IMG/VR virus record: IMGVR_UViG_3300045988_171378 | From: a virus | Strand: one strand, 5' to 3' | DNA: 35,220 nucleotides | The notes under the pieces: model-generated | Told to the model about the DNA's origin: nothing | Database searches by the model: none | What the model saw: only the letters and a program-made list of their open reading frames with translations | Translations under genes and position numbers: made by a program | Shown: one piece after another, positions 1 through 35,220 of the stretch | Numbering within the stretch: position 1 is the stretch's first letter | Layout: the number at the start of each line of letters is the position of its first letter

Positions 1-99
1 ACCTCGAGCAAATAGCCGCCGCTTTGGGCGTATCTTTCGAGGCGTATTTTGTCGCCACCGACGGTACAAAAATATAAGGTAACGCTATGCAAAAAAAAG
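1..99. repeat. Terminal direct repeat, identical to nt 35122-35220 (closed circular or terminally redundant genome; unique length 35121 bp)
   Basis: Both ends read acctcgagcaaatagccgcc...aacgctatgcaaaaaaaag, 99/99 identical. Genes run seamlessly across the junction. Confidence 0.97.
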
Positions 100-484: not shown

Positions 485-877
485 GTGTGTAATAATGGCT
501 ACATAGAAGTTTATTGCCCAGAACACCCAAGAGCCAAATCAAGGAAATATGTTTACGAACATATTTTAGTTATGGAAAAACATATCGGACGATATTTATT
601 GCCTAATGAAATCGTCCACCATAAAAATGAAATTAAAACTGATAATCGCATAGAAAATTTGCAACTCATGACAAATAATGAACATGCGGCTTTACATGAT
701 ACAATACGAGAAAAAAAACATATAAATGTTTTAAATGGGGCATGGAGTAAAAAATATGAATGTTGCATTAACTGTGGTTCAACTACAGTTAAACATAAAG
801 GCAATGGCTTATGTGTTAACTGCTACGCTACAATGTTGCGCCACAAAAAGGAGGTGATGCCCTATGTCGAACATTAG
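485..877 (+). CDS. HNH endonuclease catalytic domain with C-terminal Cys4 zinc ribbon
   Basis: GYIEVYCPEHPRA...YVYEHILVMEKHIGRYLLPNEIVHHKNEIKTDNRIENLQLMTNNEHAALH is a His-Asn-His signature; CINCG...CVNC follows. The frame is open back to nt 374 and there encodes KRYNIPLRETAFAKSIATQKERHPRWQGGKH. The listed start is GTG. Confidence 0.85.
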   Translation: MCNNGYIEVYCPEHPRAKSRKYVYEHILVMEKHIGRYLLPNEIVHHKNEIKTDNRIENLQLMTNNEHAALHDTIREKKHINVLNGAWSKKYECCINCGSTTVKHKGNGLCVNCYATMLRHKKEVMPYVEH

Positions 878-888
878 AGCCGCACTCT

Positions 889-2304
889 ATGTTCGCGTTT
901 AACGCAAGCACGATGGAACAAGCGACCGACGGATATTCCATAGGCGAGCAAAAGGATAAATTACTGCACTACGCAAGTGCGCAAGGGTATGCTGTCGTCG
1001 ATACGTATTCCGACGAGGGCTTTTCCGGCAAAGATTTATTACGCCCGAATATGGAGCGAATGCTGAACGATATTCAGCACGGCAAGATAAATACCGTGCT
1101 GGTATATAAGCTTGACCGTCTTTCACGCCATGTCAAGGACGTATTAGAACTTGTCGAAACCTTTGATAAATGTAACGTAACTCTTTATTCGCTTTCGGAA
1201 AACTTCGATCTAGCCTCTCCTTTCGGCCGCGCGGCATTAAAAATGATGGCTACTTTTGCCGAACTTGAGCGCGAAACTATTGTAGAGCGCATGGAAATGG
1301 GCAAAATCGCAAGGGCCAAAGACGGCAAATATACATGTCCCGGAACGCGCTGCCCTTTCGGATACCGGCACGATAAGAAAAACGACCGTCTCCTCATTGA
1401 GGAATCCGAAGCCGAGATTATACGCAAGATATTCGATTTATACGTTAATCACGGATATACCTTCAGAAAGCTATACGATTATTGCCGCGAAGCCTATCCG
1501 GACGTTAAATATTTCAACAATCAAATGTGCTGCAAGCCTATAATCGAAAGGCCGCTGTACGCCGGCTATTTCCGTTACCGCGGCGGAGAACTTACAAAAG
1601 GGACTAATTTCGAAGCGATTATTTCTTACGAGCTTTTTCTCCAGGCGCAGGCGCAAGTTGACAGAAACCGTACTAAACGGCTTTCGGACAGCTCGCCCTA
1701 TTTGTTAACCGGACTTCTGATTTGCGGAAGGTGCGGAAACCGATACGTCGGCAAAATGTATGAGCGTTACACTAAAAAGCCGGACGGTACGCACACCAAG
1801 CATTACCGTTACCGGGATTACGGTTGCGCGGCCAGACTTAAGCGCGATAAAAATTATCACCCGGCAAAATGCGACAATGATATTTACCGCGCCGAGGAGC
1901 TGGAAAAAATCGTCGAGGATTACGTACTCAATCTGAATATTGACGATTACAACAAAGCCGACTTCTCCCCCGGCCTCATAGATAAAATGATGAGCGAAAT
2001 AGGCGCGATAAAACGCTCGCAAAGCAAACTGCTTGACCTGTATCTTTCCGGCGATATTGATAAGGATACTTTTCTTATAAGAAAAATCGAATACGATTCT
2101 AAAATTGCGGAGCTGCAAAATCTGATAGAAAAAGAAACTGAATCCGTACAGTCCGCGCCGACTAACGCTGAAGCGATTAAAAAGTCTATTGCAGAATACA
2201 GTATGCTCAACCGGCGACAAAAGCGCACGTTGCTAGAATATCTTATCAAAAATATCATAGTTGACGGCAGCAGAATCACAGTAAATTTACGGCTCAAAAA
2301 ATAA
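889..2304 (+). CDS. int: Large serine recombinase (phage integrase), 5' end disrupted
   Basis: Resolvase-type catalytic domain STMEQATDGYSIGEQ...VLVYKLDRLSRH...AELERETIVERM. This is followed by a recombinase domain, a Cys-rich zinc ribbon (CGRCGNRY...C...C) and a coiled coil. The canonical start MSNIRAALYVRV (ATG 864, RBS aaggaggtg) is in another frame and ends at TAA 900. Seven nt (900-906) separate YVRV from STMEQ. Confidence 0.85.
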   Translation: MFAFNASTMEQATDGYSIGEQKDKLLHYASAQGYAVVDTYSDEGFSGKDLLRPNMERMLNDIQHGKINTVLVYKLDRLSRHVKDVLELVETFDKCNVTLYSLSENFDLASPFGRAALKMMATFAELERETIVERMEMGKIARAKDGKYTCPGTRCPFGYRHDKKNDRLLIEESEAEIIRKIFDLYVNHGYTFRKLYDYCREAYPDVKYFNNQMCCKPIIERPLYAGYFRYRGGELTKGTNFEAIISYELFLQAQAQVDRNRTKRLSDSSPYLLTGLLICGRCGNRYVGKMYERYTKKPDGTHTKHYRYRDYGCAARLKRDKNYHPAKCDNDIYRAEELEKIVEDYVLNLNIDDYNKADFSPGLIDKMMSEIGAIKRSQSKLLDLYLSGDIDKDTFLIRKIEYDSKIAELQNLIEKETESVQSAPTNAEAIKKSIAEYSMLNRRQKRTLLEYLIKNIIVDGSRITVNLRLKK

Positions 2305-2352: not shown

Positions 2353-2470
2353 CTTGACAAATATATTTAACGGCTCTAAAATAGAGGTGAAGCTCAGAAA
2401 AATTGAATAGTCCATTGGCGCAATAATGAAGTAACGCTATAAATATTAACTTCAATAGGGCGATAAAATA

Positions 2471-3474: not shown

Positions 3475-4372
3475 CATTAAGCTTTTTAGCATACCAAGCG
3501 TCGAATTGCTTTAAAACGTCGGCCTTGCGGGCATAGTGGGAAACGACGGTAGTTGTTATATCAGAATAGCCATCGAAATAAGACATGTACGAACGCCCCA
3601 CAATATAGCCGAGCTTGAATACTATAATACCTATCCCAAGCCAGCCCCACGTCGCTACGTCCTTAACGCCCATTAGCGCCATTAAAAAAACGCTTACCCA
3701 CCAGGATATGGCGCTCTTTCCTTTACGAATTTTCGCCATATCGCTCTCGCTTCTTCCGAGATCGGTCATGTCGTCGTTCTTGTTTCCGGATAAAAGGGTA
3801 TTGACGTCAATCCCCTTTACTCTCGCCGCCTTAGCCTCCAGCACGTAAACCGCGCGCTCCTTACCGAGCAGCATTCGCAGCTCTTTTTTTGGCAACGCTT
3901 TAAGCGGCGGTAAAACTTCTTTATCCGGCCCGTAAGTTTCTGCATCAAACCGCTCGAAGGATACTGCCGCCCGTTGCAATATACCGCTTTGAATCGTTTT
4001 AAGCGCCGCGTCATTATACGCTGCGCAAAATTCAGATAACCGGTCAAGCTGATCGCCCGTAAGCGCATTGGCCGCAGTCGAATAACTTTGCAAGGTGTCA
4101 ATATACTTCCTTTCTTTTTTCCCGGCGAACGTGCCTTTCGTGTAAAAATTCGCATTCAGCAGCATAGCTGCAAGAAAAAACGGCAGACACTCAATGCAGA
4201 TATCAAGTATAGAACGCCACGTTATCTCTTTTAGCTCGATCGCGCCGAGATTCAGCAAAAGCATAGCTATGACTATGCCAACGGCTATTATGTCGAAAAT
4301 TCTGTCTTTGATACCGCCCTTAAACGACTGCTTAAAATCGTTATACGTTTCCGCCGGATTCTTCTCCGCCAT
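3455..4372 (-). CDS. Membrane protein (hydrophobic helices at both ends, large soluble middle); last gene of the late operon
   Basis: RBS gaggaggggg. Hydrophobic stretches IFDIIAVGIVIAMLLLNLGAI, CLPFFLAAMLL, ISWWVSVFLMALMGV and WLGIGIIVFKLGYIV. Confidence 0.7.
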   Translation of the reverse strand: MAEKNPAETYNDFKQSFKGGIKDRIFDIIAVGIVIAMLLLNLGAIELKEITWRSILDICIECLPFFLAAMLLNANFYTKGTFAGKKERKYIDTLQSYSTAANALTGDQLDRLSEFCAAYNDAALKTIQSGILQRAAVSFERFDAETYGPDKEVLPPLKALPKKELRMLLGKERAVYVLEAKAARVKGIDVNTLLSGNKNDDMTDLGRSESDMAKIRKGKSAISWWVSVFLMALMGVKDVATWGWLGIGIIVFKLGYIVGRSYMSYFDGYSDITTTVVSHYARKADVLKQFDAWYAKKLNEKRPTE

Positions 4373-6863: not shown

Positions 6864-7994
6864 TCACGTCGTAAGATTTCTCCAGGTCAGCGCCGAAACA
6901 ACCGCGCTCTCTGACGGTATCTTGCTTGCCGACGGATTACTTGCAGAAAGCGTAGTCGTTATGCTGGAAGTATCTACTTTCCCGCTAAGACTGCTTTGAA
7001 CTGCGTTTATACTGCCCTGCAAAGCTTGTCGCACCGCCGCGACCGCAGCTTCCGTAGCTAACACGTCGGGCGATGGGATTGACGCTATCGTTGCGCCGCC
7101 TATCGTCGCGCCGCTGACCTCTATGTCGCCCGACGTTTGCGATATTATTACCTCGCCTCCGCGGCCTGAAGGCAAGACATCCAGCTTGCCCGTAGGCGCA
7201 GGCGCGTATAGCCCGTCCGTTTTTGCTTCAAGGATATTATCCGAACTCGAGGACAGCTTTACATTGGCGGTAATTTCATTGCTTGCCGATACTCCGACGG
7301 TAACCGTTGCTGTGCTTCCGCCCGTATACACATCCACTAGCGCCTCTGCCGGTATCTTTATGACCGAGCCGTCCTTCAAAGTAAGCTCTATATCCTTTGT
7401 GGTGGGATTGTACGAACCCGATACTATGAAATTATCCTGCGGAAGATTAACTACGACTGGCTCGTCCACGCACGACATTCTGAAAGTCAGCGTCAGATTA
7501 TCCTTATCGTATTCGACCGACGAAACGAGATCGCTTAAGTGCAGCCTTTCCGTACTCCCTCCGCCCTTCGTTATGATTAGGTCGCGCTCGTCATTACCCG
7601 TGCTGCTTGTCGCCGCGTCTTTCGCTTCGTATGCTATGCTCGTTATTATCCCGCCCGAACCGATAGCCGTCTCCAGCGCGTTTGTCACGTATGCCGCCAC
7701 CGCCTTTGCTGTCGTTAGCTTTTCCGATGTTTCCGTCACCGTACCCGTGAAGCCTTTAGCTACCGTTACCCATGCTCCGTTCTGCCAGATGCGGCCCTCG
7801 AGATCGCTTTCCGCGATATAGACAACTCCGACCTCGCCGCTTGCAGGAAAGGATGATACCAGCTCTATTTTACCGGTATACAGCGTTCCTCCTTTATACA
7901 CACGGTGCGTATCGCTCACAAAATAAAGCGCGTCGCCGTCCTTATTCGCCAGCCCGTCGTAGGCGCTTTGCAAAATTGTATTAAACGTTACCAT
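6864..7994 (-). CDS. Tail fibre protein
   Basis: Ser/Thr/Gly/Ala-rich beta-type sequence with an N-terminal LYFVSDT..VYKG motif. Position in the tail module. Confidence 0.55.
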   Translation of the reverse strand: MVTFNTILQSAYDGLANKDGDALYFVSDTHRVYKGGTLYTGKIELVSSFPASGEVGVVYIAESDLEGRIWQNGAWVTVAKGFTGTVTETSEKLTTAKAVAAYVTNALETAIGSGGIITSIAYEAKDAATSSTGNDERDLIITKGGGSTERLHLSDLVSSVEYDKDNLTLTFRMSCVDEPVVVNLPQDNFIVSGSYNPTTKDIELTLKDGSVIKIPAEALVDVYTGGSTATVTVGVSASNEITANVKLSSSSDNILEAKTDGLYAPAPTGKLDVLPSGRGGEVIISQTSGDIEVSGATIGGATIASIPSPDVLATEAAVAAVRQALQGSINAVQSSLSGKVDTSSITTTLSASNPSASKIPSESAVVSALTWRNLTT

Positions 7995-28603: not shown

Positions 28604-28624
28604 TTTTTAAATACTCCAATTTAT

Positions 28625-28653
28625 TTGACTTTTTTAACTGCCTGCCGTATAAT
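28625..28653 (+). promoter_or_regulatory. Consensus promoter of structured RNA A
   Basis: TTGACT (28625-28630), 17-nt spacer, TATAAT (28648-28653). Confidence 0.7.
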
Positions 28654-28659
28654 TAGAGG

Positions 28660-28737
28660 GTCGAGGGGCTTAGGCAGGTTGTTTGCCCCTCGTACCTTTT
28701 CGCCGTCCTTCCATACTACCGTTGGGCGGCTTTTTTA
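28660..28737 (+). ncRNA. Structured RNA, copy A (two hairpins, the second a terminator)
   Basis: Hairpin 1: CGAGGGGC (28662-28669) / GCCCCTCG (28685-28692) with a 15-nt loop. Hairpin 2: GCCGTCC (28702-28708) / GGGCGGC (28724-28730) followed by TTTTTT. Conserved with covariation in two further copies. Confidence 0.55.
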
Positions 28738-28753
28738 CTGCCTCACATTCCGA

Positions 28754-30924: not shown

Positions 30925-30942
30925 ATCTTTTTCTCCTTTTTT

Positions 30943-31215: not shown

Positions 31216-32001
31216 TTAAACCTTGCCAAAATGAATTTTAATCAGTTCTATAAAGGCCTTATACTCTTTTCCGTAGATATTATCACCATGCGTTTCTTCA
31301 ACCTTTCGTTCAAACTCATTAAGCATGCCGCAAAAACACCCGCATACTATTTTTACTCCCCCATCTTTTTCAATAAATGCTGTTGTAGTATCAAGCCTTA
31401 AGCCGATTTTAGAGCACCATATAATATCTGCGTCACCGGATACACTCGCGTTGCCGTATACCCTCGCGTTGCCGGATACACTCGCGTCACCGCATACCCT
31501 CGCGTTGCCGTATACCCTCGCGTCACCGCATACACTCGCGTTGCCGGATATCCACGCGGCACCGGATATCCACGCGTCACAGCATACCCTCGCGTCACCG
31601 GATACACTCGCGTTGCCGGATACCCTCGCGTTGCCGTATACACTCGCGTTGCCGGATATCCACGCGTCACCGTATACCCTCGCGTTGCCGTATACACTCG
31701 CGTTGCCGTATACACTCGCGTTGCCGGATACACTCGCGTCACCGGATACACTCGCGTCACCGTATACCCTCGCGTTGCCGTATACACTCGCGTCACCGCA
31801 TACCCTCGCGTCACCGGATACACTCGCGTTGCCGGATATCCACGCGGCACCGGATTGACTTAAATTTTCCCCTTTTTCGACGTACCCGCCTAAGTCGCCT
31901 TTCTTGATTCCTAATGCTTTTATTGCCCTTACTGCTCGTATACGATAAAGCGTCACACCTGACTGTTCTATCGTAATATCTGTTAATTCATATTTCTTCA
32001 C
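31216..32001 (-). CDS. YdcK-like hexapeptide-repeat (beta-helix) protein
   Basis: The N-terminus YELTDITIEQSGVTLYRIRAVRAIKALGIKKGDLGGYVEKGENLSQSGAAWISGNA parallels E. coli YdcK. It is followed by 24 consecutive hexads G(N/D)A(S/R/W)(V/I)(S/Y/C). GTG start. Confidence 0.6.
   Translation of the reverse strand: MKKYELTDITIEQSGVTLYRIRAVRAIKALGIKKGDLGGYVEKGENLSQSGAAWISGNASVSGDARVCGDASVYGNARVYGDASVSGDASVSGNASVYGNASVYGNARVYGDAWISGNASVYGNARVSGNASVSGDARVCCDAWISGAAWISGNASVCGDARVYGNARVCGDASVSGNARVYGNASVSGDADIIWCSKIGLRLDTTTAFIEKDGGVKIVCGCFCGMLNEFERKVEETHGDNIYGKEYKAFIELIKIHFGKV
31420..31851. repeat. 24 tandem 18-nt units (coding hexapeptide repeats)
   Basis: Units such as gcgttgccgtataccctc and gcgtcaccggatacactc repeat head to tail. 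This keeps all frames on both strands open. Confidence 0.9.
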
Positions 32002-32749: not shown

Positions 32750-32769
32750 CTGTCACCGCTTTCGTACAT
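32750..32769. repeat. Left arm of the 20-bp perfect inverted repeat bracketing the mini-array (partner 32871-32890)
   Basis: ctgtcaccgctttcgtacat is the exact reverse complement of atgtacgaaagcggtgacag. Confidence 0.95.
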
Positions 32770-32870
32770 GTTTGAGGTTTTACAAAATAACAAGGCTCTC
32801 AAACGATTTTGATTTCCATTTTAAATACCCTCTTGTTTAAGAGTTTTATAAAATAACTAGGCTCTCAAAC
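32770..32870 (-). CRISPR. CRISPR-like mini-array: 36-nt repeat, 30-nt spacer, 35-nt repeat (type II-like repeat; no cas genes)
   Basis: Minus-strand repeats are GTTTGAGAGCCTAGTTATTTTATAAAACTCTTAAAC (32870-32835) and GTTTGAGAGCCTTGTTATTTTGTAAAACCTCAAAC (32804-32770). The spacer is aagagggtatttaaaatggaaatcaaaatc (32834-32805). Confidence 0.5.
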
Positions 32871-32908
32871 ATGTACGAAAGCGGTGACAGACGATTTTGA
32901 TTTCTATT

Positions 32909-33121: not shown

Positions 33122-33150
33122 TTGACTTTTTCCTGCCTCTGCTCTATAAT
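33122..33150 (+). promoter_or_regulatory. Consensus promoter of structured RNA B
   Basis: TTGACT (33122-33127), 17-nt spacer, TATAAT (33145-33150). Confidence 0.7.
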
Positions 33151-33156
33151 AATAGG

Positions 33157-33246
33157 AACGGAGGGGCTTAGGCAGGTTGTTCGCCCCTCTTCCCTTATCG
33201 CCGTCCTACGCTTTTTGCATTTCCGTCGGACGGCTTTTCTTTTTTA
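33157..33246 (+). ncRNA. Structured RNA, copy B
   Basis: Hairpin 1: GAGGGGC (33161-33167) / GCCCCTC (33183-33189), with the same loop as copy A. Hairpin 2: GCCGTCC (33200-33206) / GGACGGC (33228-33234) followed by TTTTCTTTTTT. Confidence 0.55.
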
Positions 33247-33974: not shown

Positions 33975-34187
33975 TTTTCCTCCTTTTATACTTTATTCAC
34001 TTTAATAGCTATCGAGGTGTATTTACATTATACAATATATTTCGTCAAATTCCAACTGATAGAGTAAAATTTTTACATTTTTTTCTTGCAATTTTATCAA
34101 AAATTTTATATTGAATCAAAAATTGAATACTTTATACGATTTTTAAAAATTTATTAAATAACACTCTCTAAAAGAAGGTGATAATGT

Positions 34188-34253
34188 ATGTCGAATATCA
34201 AAGCAGCTCTCTACGTCAGAGTCAGCACGGCAGTAATTTTTCCGATAACGTAA
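34188..34253 (+). pseudogene. Orphan 5' fragment of a serine recombinase gene (first 14 codons intact, then unrelated sequence and a stop)
   Basis: ATG TCG AAT ATC AAA GCA GCT CTC TAC GTC AGA GTC AGC ACG encodes MSNIKAALYVRVST, then AVIFPIT*. RBS gaaggtga and an AT-rich promoter-like region lie upstream. Confidence 0.8.
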
Positions 34254-34264
34254 CGCCGTATTTT

Positions 34265-34483
34265 TCACACAGCAAAAGTATTTACTCGTAAAACTCTTTC
34301 ACTTTTAACCTCCGTAACGGGAGCCAAATAATTTTCTACAATGTCTAACAACTTTTCGCCTGCTTCGTAAGGCATTTCCTGCAATAACGCCGCGATAAAA
34401 TAATATAAAAACTCCGCGTTATTTTCTGTTTTCTCTAATACATGCGTCTCTTTTGCTTCCTCTGTGCGTATTCCTAAATCCAT
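34265..34483 (-). CDS. Small protein, FLYYFIAALL family, copy C (72 aa)
   Basis: NNAEFLYYFIAALLQEMPYEAGEKLLDIVENYL is nearly identical to copy A. The DNA at 34327-34430 is a close repeat of 28375-28478. Confidence 0.55.
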   Translation of the reverse strand: MDLGIRTEEAKETHVLEKTENNAEFLYYFIAALLQEMPYEAGEKLLDIVENYLAPVTEVKSERVLRVNTFAV

Positions 34484-34504
34484 TTTTTAAATCCTCCAAT
34501 TTAT

Positions 34505-34533
34505 TTGACTTTTTTACCTGCCTGTCGTATAAT
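34505..34533 (+). promoter_or_regulatory. Consensus promoter of structured RNA C
   Basis: TTGACT (34505-34510), 17-nt spacer, TATAAT (34528-34533). Confidence 0.7.
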
Positions 34534-34539
34534 CAGAGG

Positions 34540-34630
34540 GTGTCAGAGGGGCGGCAAGCGTTACCCCTCTGCCCTCTTGGCGCCGTTCGGTTTTGGTTTA
34601 GTGGACTTTCAACCGAGCGGCTTCCCTTTT
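34540..34630 (+). ncRNA. Structured RNA, copy C
   Basis: Hairpin 1: CAGAGGGG (34544-34551) / CCCCTCTG (34564-34571). Hairpin 2: GCCGTTCGG (34582-34590) / CCGAGCGGC (34613-34621), followed by TTCCCTTTT, a weaker U-run. Confidence 0.5.
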
Positions 34631-34775
34631 AGCCTTCCGCCTTAGCTTCCCTGACTATTTGAGCGGCTTCAGCGGCGTTCTGTGCTTCTGCTTCTATCCG
34701 TCTTGCTATCGTTTCAAGCAATGCGTTTAGTTGCGCATTCGTCATTCCGTTTGCCTCCATTTGCTCAACATTCAT
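34629..34775 (-). CDS. 48-aa first ORF of the module C minus-strand operon
   Basis: MNVEQMEANGMTNAQLNALLETIARRIEAEAQNAAEAAQIVREAKAEG. RBS aaaggaggt. Confidence 0.4.
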   Translation of the reverse strand: MNVEQMEANGMTNAQLNALLETIARRIEAEAQNAAEAAQIVREAKAEG

Positions 34776-34846
34776 TTGGACTCTACCTCCTTTTTGCTTG
34801 CCTTTTTATTCAATCTCGGTCGCTTGTCAACCTTGATTGTATCTTT

Positions 34847-34875
34847 ATTATAATCTATTTGGCTGATGTTGTCAA
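34847..34875 (-). promoter_or_regulatory. Consensus minus-strand promoter, module C
   Basis: On the minus strand: TTGACA (34875-34870), 17-nt spacer, TATAAT (34852-34847). Confidence 0.65.
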
Positions 34876-34926
34876 CCATTTTGCTGCTATTTTATAAAAA
34901 TATTTTTGAAATTTTAGTATTTTCTA

Positions 34927-34955
34927 TTGACATTATAAGCAAGATAGCTTATAAT
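34927..34955 (+). promoter_or_regulatory. Consensus promoter of the module C HTH gene
   Basis: TTGACA (34927-34932), 17-nt spacer, TATAAT (34950-34955). Confidence 0.7.
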
Positions 34956-34985
34956 ATTTTTATCATTATAATGGGAGATTAAAAA

Positions 34986-35198
34986 ATGAAATTTGCAAAT
35001 CGAATTAAGCACTTGCTTGTAGATTGCGGCAACATATCAGAGGCGGAACTTGCAAGGCGGTTGGGTGTAACACCGCAAACTCTCAACAAGAAAATGCACA
35101 CAGATAACTTTTCCACCGCCGACCTCGAGCAAATAGCCGCCGCTTTGGGCGTATCTTTCGAGGCGTATTTTGTCGCCACCGACGGTACAAAAATATAA
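34986..35198 (+). CDS. HTH DNA-binding protein, module C (70 aa)
   Basis: NISEAELARRLGVTPQTLNKKMHTDNFSTADLEQIAAALG. RBS gggaga. The 3' end lies in the terminal repeat (equivalent to nt 1-77). Confidence 0.75.
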   Translation: MKFANRIKHLLVDCGNISEAELARRLGVTPQTLNKKMHTDNFSTADLEQIAAALGVSFEAYFVATDGTKI

Positions 35199-35220
35199 GG
35201 TAACGCTATGCAAAAAAAAG
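35122..35220. repeat. Terminal direct repeat, identical to nt 1-99
   Basis: 99/99 identity with the start of the window. Confidence 0.97.

Follow-up and report, generated by a model that had tools for sequence, protein, structure and literature searches.

An HNH-endonuclease cassette and a short, stop-led coding gap at the catalytic-serine codons of a gut phage integrase gene: a candidate for translational bypass

The IMG/VR record IMGVR_UViG_3300045988_171378, a viral DNA of 35,220 nucleotides whose full length is called the window here, represents a 35,121-bp circle (bases 1–99 are repeated at 35122–35220) and is best read as the genome of a temperate phage of gut Christensenellales. We analysed its gene for a large serine integrase (int), which is split at the codons of the active site. 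The first native codons of the gene form an orphan fragment, and 1,798 bp lie between it and the integrase body across the circular junction. This intervening DNA includes a gene for an HNH homing endonuclease and a second integrase start, which is itself separated from the body by seven nucleotides that open with a stop codon. The features on which the argument turns are given below in window coordinates; loci are designated by L numbers, proteins by P numbers, and a slash within a sequence marks a junction.

34170–34187, plus strand: native integrase ribosome-binding region (aaaagaaggtgataatgt), identical in the uninterrupted L086–L089 and near-identical in L003
34188–34253, plus strand: orphan (MSNIKAALYVRVST-AVIFPIT, then stop), consisting of native integrase codons 1–14, a 7-codon cassette-derived tail and a stop
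34230–35121 and continuing at base 1, no strand assigned: left part of the 1,798-bp cassette, absent from L086–L089 and L003
87–877, plus strand: HNH homing-endonuclease gene, a pseudogene in the window (Pfam HNH_3, 1e-12; PHROG HNH endonuclease)
848–899, plus strand: cassette-encoded replacement 5' end, with ribosome-binding site (RBS) aaggaggtga (848–857) and 12 codons, MSNIRAALYVRV (864–899)
900–906, plus strand: coding gap TAACGCA, an in-frame TAA and 4 nt between the Val12 and Ser13 codons
907–2304, plus strand: integrase body, from the catalytic Ser codon AGC to the stop; large serine recombinase
2426–2460, plus strand: core region of the phage attachment (att) site, attP (ATGAAGTAACGCTATA/AATATTAACTTC...), the P arm of which is joined to host DNA in L052, L073 and L074

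The orphan starts at ATG 34188 behind the RBS gaaggtga, encodes MSNIKAALYVRVST as far as ACG 34229 and then continues in frame through AVIFPIT to a stop at 34251–34253. The second copy of the integrase start runs from ATG 864 to GTT 899, encodes MSNIRAALYVRV and is 72% identical to the native 5' end; its beginning overlaps, out of frame, the last 14 nt of the HNH gene. An initial annotation, made from the sequence of the window, had described the two starts as identical at 26 of 36 nucleotides and 11 of 12 amino acids, and our recount (864–899 against 34188–34223) agrees. Nine of the ten nucleotide differences are silent, comprising seven third-position changes and a synonymous AGA/CGC pair, and the sole amino-acid change is K/R (AAA/AGA). 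A degenerate pattern for the integrase 5' end matched only these two sites in the window, with 0 matches expected in 100 shuffles. The starts are, as the annotation held, old diverged alleles and no recent duplication, and the second copy is part of the HNH cassette, with which it moves. The annotation was right that this copy exists, but it is not fused to the integrase body, from which TAA CGC A (900–906) separates it. The promoter that had been ascribed to the orphan fared less well: the orphan is preceded only by weak 9/12 consensus matches (34042–34070 and 34158–34185), and the perfect TTGACA-17-TATAAT promoters are located within the insert.

An uninterrupted form of the gene, predicted from the window, exists in four independent public assemblies (L086–L089). 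In these the window RBS and the 42 nucleotides of the orphan, identical at 42 of 42 positions, lead directly into ATGGAACAAGCGACC, which corresponds to window position 913 onward. The encoded restored form, P0253 (MSNIKAALYVRVSTMEQATDGY...), is a member of the protein cluster of the window integrase, although an exact database look-up of the reconstructed 'restored' and 'bypass' proteins returned no record. The hexamer AGCACG, present at 34224–34229 and 907–912, coincides exactly with the junction in an alignment of the window and the empty allele. The DNA between the two copies amounts to 892 + 906 = 1,798 bp across the circular junction, and its deletion gives ...GTC AGC ACG ATG GAA CAA, an intact MSNIKAALYVRVSTMEQ... 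gene, just as had been proposed. The comparison establishes an insertion with exact boundaries together with its empty allele. The L086–L089 contigs are short, and the DNA upstream of the integrase lies outside them; all four break in an AT-rich region upstream of the integrase RBS, and three start with Nextera adapter sequence (…AGATGTGTATAAGAGACAG) just 5' of the RBS (L086:1–46, L088:1–3 and L089:1–22). In IMG/VR, L003 shares the upstream switch module B and the RBS with the window, and its integrase gene is uninterrupted (MSIIKAALYVRVSTMEQV), like that of L001. Relative to the window, L003 also carries a ~1-kb gene between switch module B and the integrase RBS (L003:1060–2100, open reading frame (ORF) 1187–1981), which is another sign that the integrase-proximal junction is a cargo hotspot.

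L002, L051 and L073–L080 carry this cassette behind different upstream DNA, its left (ACG/GCAGTAATT) and right junctions being identical. A diverged cassette is present in L046, where the integrase is 67% identical and a second, independent orphan is found directly 3' of a cI/LexA-like repressor gene; the intact integrase gene of L047 sits at this same place, directly downstream of such a repressor. The L046 orphan is decayed, having no ATG and a His in place of the Arg, and is joined at ...CAC GT/AATTAC without a repeat. For this reason AGCACG, which does mark the join in the window as the initial annotation had stated, is no general target duplication. The HNH–integrase arrangement also exists without an orphan, with a gapped integrase in L058, L063, L064 and L068 and an uninterrupted one in L052. 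In L002 (440–456) and L073 (2987–3010) the orphan is preceded by CCACAAAAAGAGGGTAATGCCTT, a remnant of an HNH 3' end with its RBS, which suggests an earlier gain and loss of a cassette at the same spot. We had also considered the upstream fragment of L046 as a host attL, as it shares TACTGTCACGT with attR, and rejected this because the upstream gene is a phage cI/LexA-like repressor gene.

The orphan and its AGCACG might alternatively be parts of a reversible DNA switch, in which deletion of the 1.8 kb, possibly as a circle, alternates int-off and int-on states. The restored sequence that such a switch calls for exists and differs from the window at only 9 of 1,531 nt across int and att, fewer than the 13 differences of the other cassette-bearing lineage across this region. 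However, the differences are mosaic among the window, the empty allele and the other cassette lineage, which recombination among co-circulating alleles would explain as well as excision would; on these sequences an ancestor and a revertant of the window are therefore indistinguishable. Moreover, RecA-type recombination needs homology longer than 6 bases and no recombinase that could perform the deletion is evident, integrated prophages retain the cassette, the L046 orphan lacks the repeat, and lineages with the HNH-gap-int order but no orphan keep intact integrases. We regard a switch as very improbable.

The insert is best read as a mobile 1.8-kb element built around a free-standing HNH homing endonuclease and carrying regulatory passengers, namely small ORFs, a small RNA (sRNA)-like module and a Cro-like helix-turn-helix (HTH) gene, and we are highly confident that insertion of a cassette split the integrase gene. 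Our verdict on the orphan is that it is the original integrase 5' end, the displaced exon and a homology arm of a homing-endonuclease cassette. Besides the HNH gene, the cassette contains the following features.

34265–34483, minus strand: 72-aa ORF
~34505–34625, plus strand: promoter and structured RNA, 'module C'
~34629–34775, minus strand: 48-aa ORF
34875–34847 (minus strand) and 34927–34955 (plus strand): divergent perfect sigma-70 promoters
34986–35121 and 1–77, plus strand: 70-aa Cro/cI-type HTH gene (Pfam HTH_26/HTH_3; PHROG transcriptional repressor)

The HNH protein has a Clr5-like N-terminal domain (Pfam) and a C-terminal CxxC...CxxC tail. Its gene is intact (263 aa) in L002, L051 and L073–L082. 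In the window, one A has been lost from the A-run at ~383–385, which splits the gene into 87–440 and 485–877; the window lineage has thus lost the HNH enzyme by frameshift and retained the gap.

In the gap region of the window, the GTT that ends at 899 is followed by TAA CGC A (900–906) and then, in the +1 frame, by AGC ACG ATG GAA from 907 onward. The contiguous Y-x-R-V-S-T motif is absent as written, since YVRV runs into TAA and ST is displaced by 7 nt into the +1 frame; only skipping of the gap restores it. Removal of the gap yields a full integrase ORF of 477 codons. The integrase has the domain set of the large serine recombinases (Resolvase PF00239, 1e-41; Recombinase PF07508; Zn_ribbon_recom PF13408), and its body is 99% identical to the uninterrupted integrases of L001, L003, L052 and L086. 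Conventional translation of the body is possible only from ATG 889 (MFAFNASTMEQ...), in an ORF without the catalytic Tyr and Arg. Internal starts were rejected as the explanation: ATG 889 has a counterpart in L070 and not in L046, and no ATG, GTG or TTG precedes the Ser codon in L046, L058, L063 or L068. We also rejected an alternative code or suppressor transfer RNA (tRNA), as all three stop codons, TAG, TAA and TGA, occur at the site and no tRNA gene is present in the window, and a hop from CGC to CGC (+9), which leaves the frame wrong. Two further candidates concerned the gap sequence itself. TAACGC is not a special repeated motif, with ~50 occurrences in the window, and a P-nucleotide or palindrome footprint (GCGTT-T-AACGC) was discarded because the L046 palindrome spans only 4 bp and none is present in the other gap types.

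The gap is not peculiar to the window. TAACGCA recurs in L002, L051, L054–L057 and L073–L082, and L046 has TAACGCC. Altogether, in all seven lineages with the Zn-ribbon-tailed HNH and a gap the integrase gene is broken at one common point, after the Val codon of R-V and before the Ser codon of S-T, by one of three types of gap.

7-nt gap: GTY TAA CGC M / AGC (window/L002, L046)
6-nt gap, in frame: GTT TAG GTT / TCG, AGC or AGT, and GTT TAA GTT / TCA (L058, L063, L068, L064)
4-nt gap (TGAA): GTT TGA A / AGC (L070)

Every gap, whether of 4, 6 or 7 nt, begins with a stop directly after GTY (Val12) and ends directly before the Ser codon, and its removal produced full ORFs of 469–477 codons in 6 of 6 tested lineages. 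The Ser codon after the gap occurs in four synonymous forms, TCG, AGC, TCA and AGT. In the 6-nt type the stop varies between TAG and TAA, and both GTT codons are invariant in the four lineages. The block formed by the RBS, the 12 codons and the stop is 74–100% identical over all pairs of six lineages (92–100% within the 6-nt-gap lineages), while the next 300 nt of int are only 63–80% identical, so that the high conservation ends exactly at the gap. All three members of clade III (L058, L063 and L068) have the gap, at a synonymous divergence (dS) of at least 2, which is saturated, and a ratio of nonsynonymous to synonymous divergence (dN/dS) of 0.03–0.05, as under purifying selection. No residue is inserted between R-V and S-T in the N-termini of ~113 full-length homologues.

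Homologues of the HNH gene (39–100% identity) lie immediately 5' of large serine recombinase genes in 10 contexts, as they do in each context that could be retrieved down to 39% identity, and the HNH tree mirrors the integrase tree. Uninterrupted integrases are found either without this HNH (L001, L003, L045 and L047; the upstream DNA is not on the short L086–L089 contigs) or with tail-less HNH relatives (L071 and L083–L085). The conservation of the gap is an observation, and so is its strict association with the tailed HNH, L052 excepted. The co-occurrence of tail and gap suggests that the gap gives immunity against the HNH enzyme, a proposition that we consider evenly balanced given L052 as a counter-example. 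The tail-less relatives are shorter and stand directly 5' of uninterrupted serine integrases (L083–L085, L071–L072); examples occur in Streptococcus prophages beside comG-like type II secretion system genes, and that HNH is recorded in 254 blocks. The more distant tailed HNH genes P0203 and P0176 are not adjacent to integrases.

Integration could be followed at the att core, which lies ~120 nt 3' of int. The P arm ATGAAGTAACGCT(A/T)TA (2426–2441) is followed by the phage P' arm in the window, L075 and L076, and by host DNA (CTGTCAGG..., CTGTCATG... or CTGTCACG...) with NMT1-like and ABC-transporter genes in L052, L073, L074, L058 and L046; the host DNA at the P arm of L052, L073 and L074 reads CTGTCAGGCGCAGG.... 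Host-joined and P'-joined forms are thus both present, as in attP x attB integration by a large serine recombinase. L073 and L074, both with the orphan, an intact HNH gene and the 7-nt gap, run into host DNA at att. Their attP counterpart is L076, and L073 and L076 show 0 mismatches over 3,372 nt from the orphan ATG to att. Likewise, the integrated L058 and the attP form L060 do not differ at any of 2,359 nt, a stretch that covers the HNH gene and the 6-nt-gap integrase. Calls of 471 aa (MFAFNAST...), which arise from the interrupted arrangement only, are found on contigs of up to 384 kb, and a 463-aa call (MEQ...), also specific to that arrangement, on a 318-kb contig. Identical gap-bearing phages thus occur both integrated and free, and the integrase is accordingly produced in spite of the gap, if it is not in every case supplied by co-resident phages.

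The attB site lies in the 5' end of a host gene for the NMT1/THI5-like binding protein of an ABC transporter, at codons ...LYC(H/Q)..., and the phage P arm gives this host gene a new 5' end and start. In L051 (7073–10521) and L077 (3077–5528), the same P arm continues from the att core into other phage DNA, with SSAP_Sak recombinase, HNHc_6 and replication genes; these joints are either integrase-mediated phage–phage exchanges or mosaic joints.

The position of att bears on the origin of the split gene. The initial annotation had suggested an HNH-associated insertion in the active-site codons of the integrase, which stands, or a cointegrate, which as a product of the integrase does not: the real att lies downstream of int, and the orphan junctions are 9–15 nt off the equivalent crossover position. 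In favour of a cointegrate at a pseudo-att, the integrase 5' coding DNA is somewhat like the host attB arm. HNH genes are common in group I introns, and a self-splicing intron or intein was considered as well, but there are 0 Rfam matches in the window, no group I or group II intron was recognized, and the insert has minus-strand ORFs and divergent promoters. An assembly artefact conflicts with the recording of the exact interrupted gene in 59 blocks of independent assemblies. We judge these explanations, taken together, to be extremely improbable. An attP at the integrase 5' end, with a swap of promoter and 5' end on integration, was rejected on the same ground, the position of the att core ~120 nt 3' of int.

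The likeness between the integrase 5' coding DNA and the B' arm of its attB is an observation of its own. In L046, positions 4063–4090 and 7470–7490 share TACTGTCACGT, and TAC-GTCAG at window 34209–34229 resembles TACTGTCAGG at L073:6355–6375. This could be chance (a probability of ~0.1 for the 11-mer), or it could reflect a pseudo-attB or an autoregulatory site.

A cassette that is purely selfish would leave the integrase dead, the gap being no more than the end of a 12-codon decoy ORF, with integration dating from before the invasion or relying on an integrase in trans. This would agree with the lack of a conventional start for a Ser-containing product in L046, L058, L063 and L068, with the co-circulation of intact alleles of the same att specificity, with the window-type genome being known only as attP-form circles (59 blocks, never on a contig >50 kb), and with the fact that insertions of the MobA type, which are described below, are typically recent. 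It does not agree with the state of the genes. Three gap lineages separated by a dS of at least 2 keep a dN/dS of 0.03–0.05 and have no other lesion, the Ser codon varies only synonymously, and the 12 codons are coding-like in all lineages, whereas the displaced orphan of L046 decayed. The genotypes that are identical at 0/3,372 and 0/2,359 nt in integrated and free form count against it as well. We consider a dead integrase unlikely. The interrupted gene is probably not a dead gene awaiting deletion; its cassette 5' fragment and conserved stop-led gap probably form a working, recoded 5' end.

We consider it probable that the element is a cassette like that of MobA and gene 60, consisting of an endonuclease, a replacement exon and a coding gap, and that the integrase is expressed by translational bypass. 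In this model, the cassette would have invaded the integrase gene at the catalytic Arg-Val-Ser-Thr codons and left the 14 native, promoter-proximal codons behind as the orphan. The HNH enzyme would cut uninterrupted integrase alleles near ...AGCACG/ATGG in co-infections, and the cassette would be copied in by repair off the cassette-bearing genome, the two arms of homology being the orphan and the integrase body. The carrier's own gene would stay uncut, its recognition sequence being separated by the gap. The strong HTH-HNH-int transcript would still yield a little integrase: ribosomes with peptidyl-tRNA(Val) on GUU and UAA in the A site would skip the gap and resume at AGC, giving the YVRVST active site. 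The product of the 7-nt bypass would have the N-terminal tryptic peptide VSTMEQATDGYSIGEQK, which spans the VSTMEQ junction. That the integrase stays functional through recoding of some kind is, in our estimate, also reasonably probable.

Recoding need not involve a bypass. The message could be read linearly, by +1 frameshifting at the 'shifty stop' GUU-UAA-C to give RV-NA-ST (RV-E-ST in the 4-nt type) and by readthrough of the 6-nt gap to give RV-x-V-ST, if the active-site loop tolerates 1–2 extra residues. Termination is weak where C or A comes after the stop, the +1 readings of the 7-nt gaps, AAC GCA in the window and AAC GCC in L046, are synonymous and both encode Asn-Ala, and the 7-nt and 4-nt types have no matched landing codon. 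Yet tRNA-Val is unable to re-pair at +1 (UUU; UCU in L046), and the features of a prfB-type +1 frameshift are missing, with no re-pairing and no GGAGG-like Shine–Dalgarno (SD) stimulator just 5' of 897. The three gap types would place differing inserts of 1 or 2 aa in the most conserved motif of the family, and no homologue N-terminus examined has an insertion at R-V/S-T. Furthermore, both GTT codons are invariant in the 6-nt type, which readthrough does not require. Linear recoding as a whole therefore appears rather improbable, and a +1 frameshift to RV-NA-ST is less likely than bypass in view of the missing tRNA-Val re-pairing and the unequal insert lengths. Our preference for bypass over frameshifting is nevertheless tentative and falls a little short of even confidence.

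Several points weigh against a bypassed, self-immune integrase gene. We infer the cleavage specificity, the immunity conferred by the gap and the decoding event from sequence comparisons, and for the decoding event in particular this counts against the model. Matched take-off and landing codons are found only in the 6-nt relatives (GTT...GTT); the window has GTT...GCA, L046 has GTC...GCC and L070 has GTT...GAA. RNA folds around the gap are no more stable than those of shuffled sequences (z of −0.2 to −0.8), and no conserved RNA stimulator was found at the gap. The window lineage, with its HNH pseudogene, is seen only in attP form, and phages with an intact integrase of the same att specificity co-circulate (L086 and L003); phages of this type could supply integrase in trans. 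The matching HNH and integrase trees could also come from homing that is limited to homologous targets. Finally, the integrated prophage L052 is the single exception in which an HNH variant lies directly 5' of an uninterrupted integrase, which argues against an absolute need for the gap unless its HNH enzyme is inactive or differently specific. The L052 HNH (602–1620), the sole case of a tailed HNH with an intact target, has an internal duplication, is 321 aa long and has a tail that ends in ...LRHKKRR.

To our knowledge, a bypass linked to a homing endonuclease has been studied in essentially one case, T4 gene 60/mobA and its homologues. As summarized by Manning & Atkins (bioRxiv 10.1101/2022.08.31.505936), who cite Bonocora et al. 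2011, the MobA element of T4-like phages joins the HNH gene mobA to the gene 60 cassette with its 50-nt bypass. By the same account, HomR is 67–81% identical to the displaced target, and the gap is led by a stop or a hungry codon and protects against nicking by MobA (bioRxiv 10.1101/2022.08.31.505936). The present element shares with it a free-standing HNH gene in a highly conserved catalytic region of a phage gene, a downstream ORF whose start overlaps the HNH ORF out of frame, and a diverged, element-encoded copy of the target, in that the cassette copy of the integrase start is HomR-like (72% here against 67–81%). In both, a stop immediately behind the take-off codon opens the gap, and the end of the insert coincides with the resume site or lies close to it. 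Near-identical empty alleles, an HNH gene that is often pseudogenised with the gap kept, and an HNH tree that tracks the host-gene tree are further likenesses. Three marks of a MobA-type element are found here: an HNH gene that abuts the target ORF, near-identical genomes with and without a clean-bounded insert, and a HomR-like copy with a stop-led gap in seven lineages. The differences are also clear. The target is a serine integrase and not a topoisomerase, and the gaps measure 4–7 nt and not 50 nt; they cannot be homologous to the 50-nt cassette, and the likeness to MobA is drawn from layout. No nascent-peptide, stem-loop or SD signals are evident here. The insertion is at codons 12–14, the upstream 'ORF1' amounts to a 21-codon orphan that has no function to keep, the window version brings ~1 kb of regulatory passengers, and matched take-off and landing codons are present only in the 6-nt variant.

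Shorter gaps offer other comparisons. The terminase gene of Streptomyces phage Hau3 contains a 10-nt frame-disrupting gap, and when its opening codon, in the A site, was UAA, mass spectrometry demonstrated bypass in E. coli; the same work mentions a 7-nt case (Antonov et al. 2023, PMC10732093). As here, a short frame-disrupting insert lies at a conserved junction of a phage gene and its first codon is slow to decode. In Hau3, however, the trigger is a rare UUA, a sensor of host physiology is proposed and no homing endonuclease is involved, whereas here there is a true stop and a link to an HNH gene. Synthetic 'stop-hops' (Weiss et al. 1987) were engineered, and according to what a 2016 review says of them no natural occurrences were known (Atkins et al. 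2016, PMC5009743). The 6-nt relatives, with GUU UAG GUU or GUU UAA GUU, have the same design of a stop flanked by matched codons, in which 9 nt would specify one valine, and by this analogy GUU-UAG-GUU looks like a natural stop-hop; the window gap, GUU UAA CGC A, is unmatched. The MobE-split nrdA of phage Aeh1 is mentioned among the 'genes in pieces' produced by homing endonucleases. There, too, a free-standing HNH gene splits an ORF and the element adds new termini, but the halves of nrdA are translated separately and assemble, while here the 14-codon upstream piece is replaced by the cassette.

Taken as a whole, these likenesses lead us to propose, with somewhat less than even confidence, a second, independent family that combines a homing endonuclease and a coding gap, located at the catalytic-serine codons of integrases of gut-Clostridia phages. 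Its 4-, 6- and 7-nt mini-gaps would be bypassed, GUU-UAG/UAA-GUU would be the first natural stop-hop, and the gap would serve both as self-immunity and as a throttle on the integrase and hence on lysogeny. If true, homing endonucleases can colonise integrase genes, which would tie the spread of selfish DNA to the control of lysogeny. The case is compact and widespread, with dozens of human-gut assemblies and three natural gap designs at one codon of a well-assayable enzyme, and it makes the rules of short-range bypass testable, including slide distance, the need for a matched landing codon and the contribution of an A-site stop. Gene callers truncate or discard such integrases (products of 410–471 aa, 'pseudogenes'), and such temperate phages can consequently be misread as integration-defective.

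The assignment of the window to Christensenellales draws on NCBI records: the window's own integrase protein and one cluster member, the 463-aa MEQ... call on the 318-kb contig, carry the name Christensenellales bacterium. The window genes are mostly on the minus strand, and related loci have a structural-protein Pfam match. No relatives of the window were found among GenBank phages, and pattern scans of IMG/VR added only one extra copy of known types and one chance match, L050.

Elsewhere in the window, three paralogous modules lie on the plus strand at 28620–28740, 33122–33240 and 34505–34625, with another at L046:4570–4720. In each, a near-consensus promoter (TTGACT-17-TATAAT) precedes a short RNA containing two hairpins, GAGGGGC...GCCCCTC and a terminator-like one that has a U tract. 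The modules are antisense, stand between small minus-strand ORFs and match no Rfam family; they look like cis-antisense sRNAs of switch or toxin–antitoxin-like modules. About 33 tandem copies of an 18-nt unit occupy 31358–31950, within the minus-strand ORF 31216–32001, which as a result encodes a hexapeptide-repeat protein. A perfect 27-nt inverted repeat with arms 87 nt apart is located at 32750–32890, and a four-member family of 44-nt repeats (TTTTACAAAATAAC.AGGCTCT.AAAC) is found at 30938, 32412, 32764 and 32830; the inverted repeat and the 44-nt repeats look like operators or terminators of the early region.

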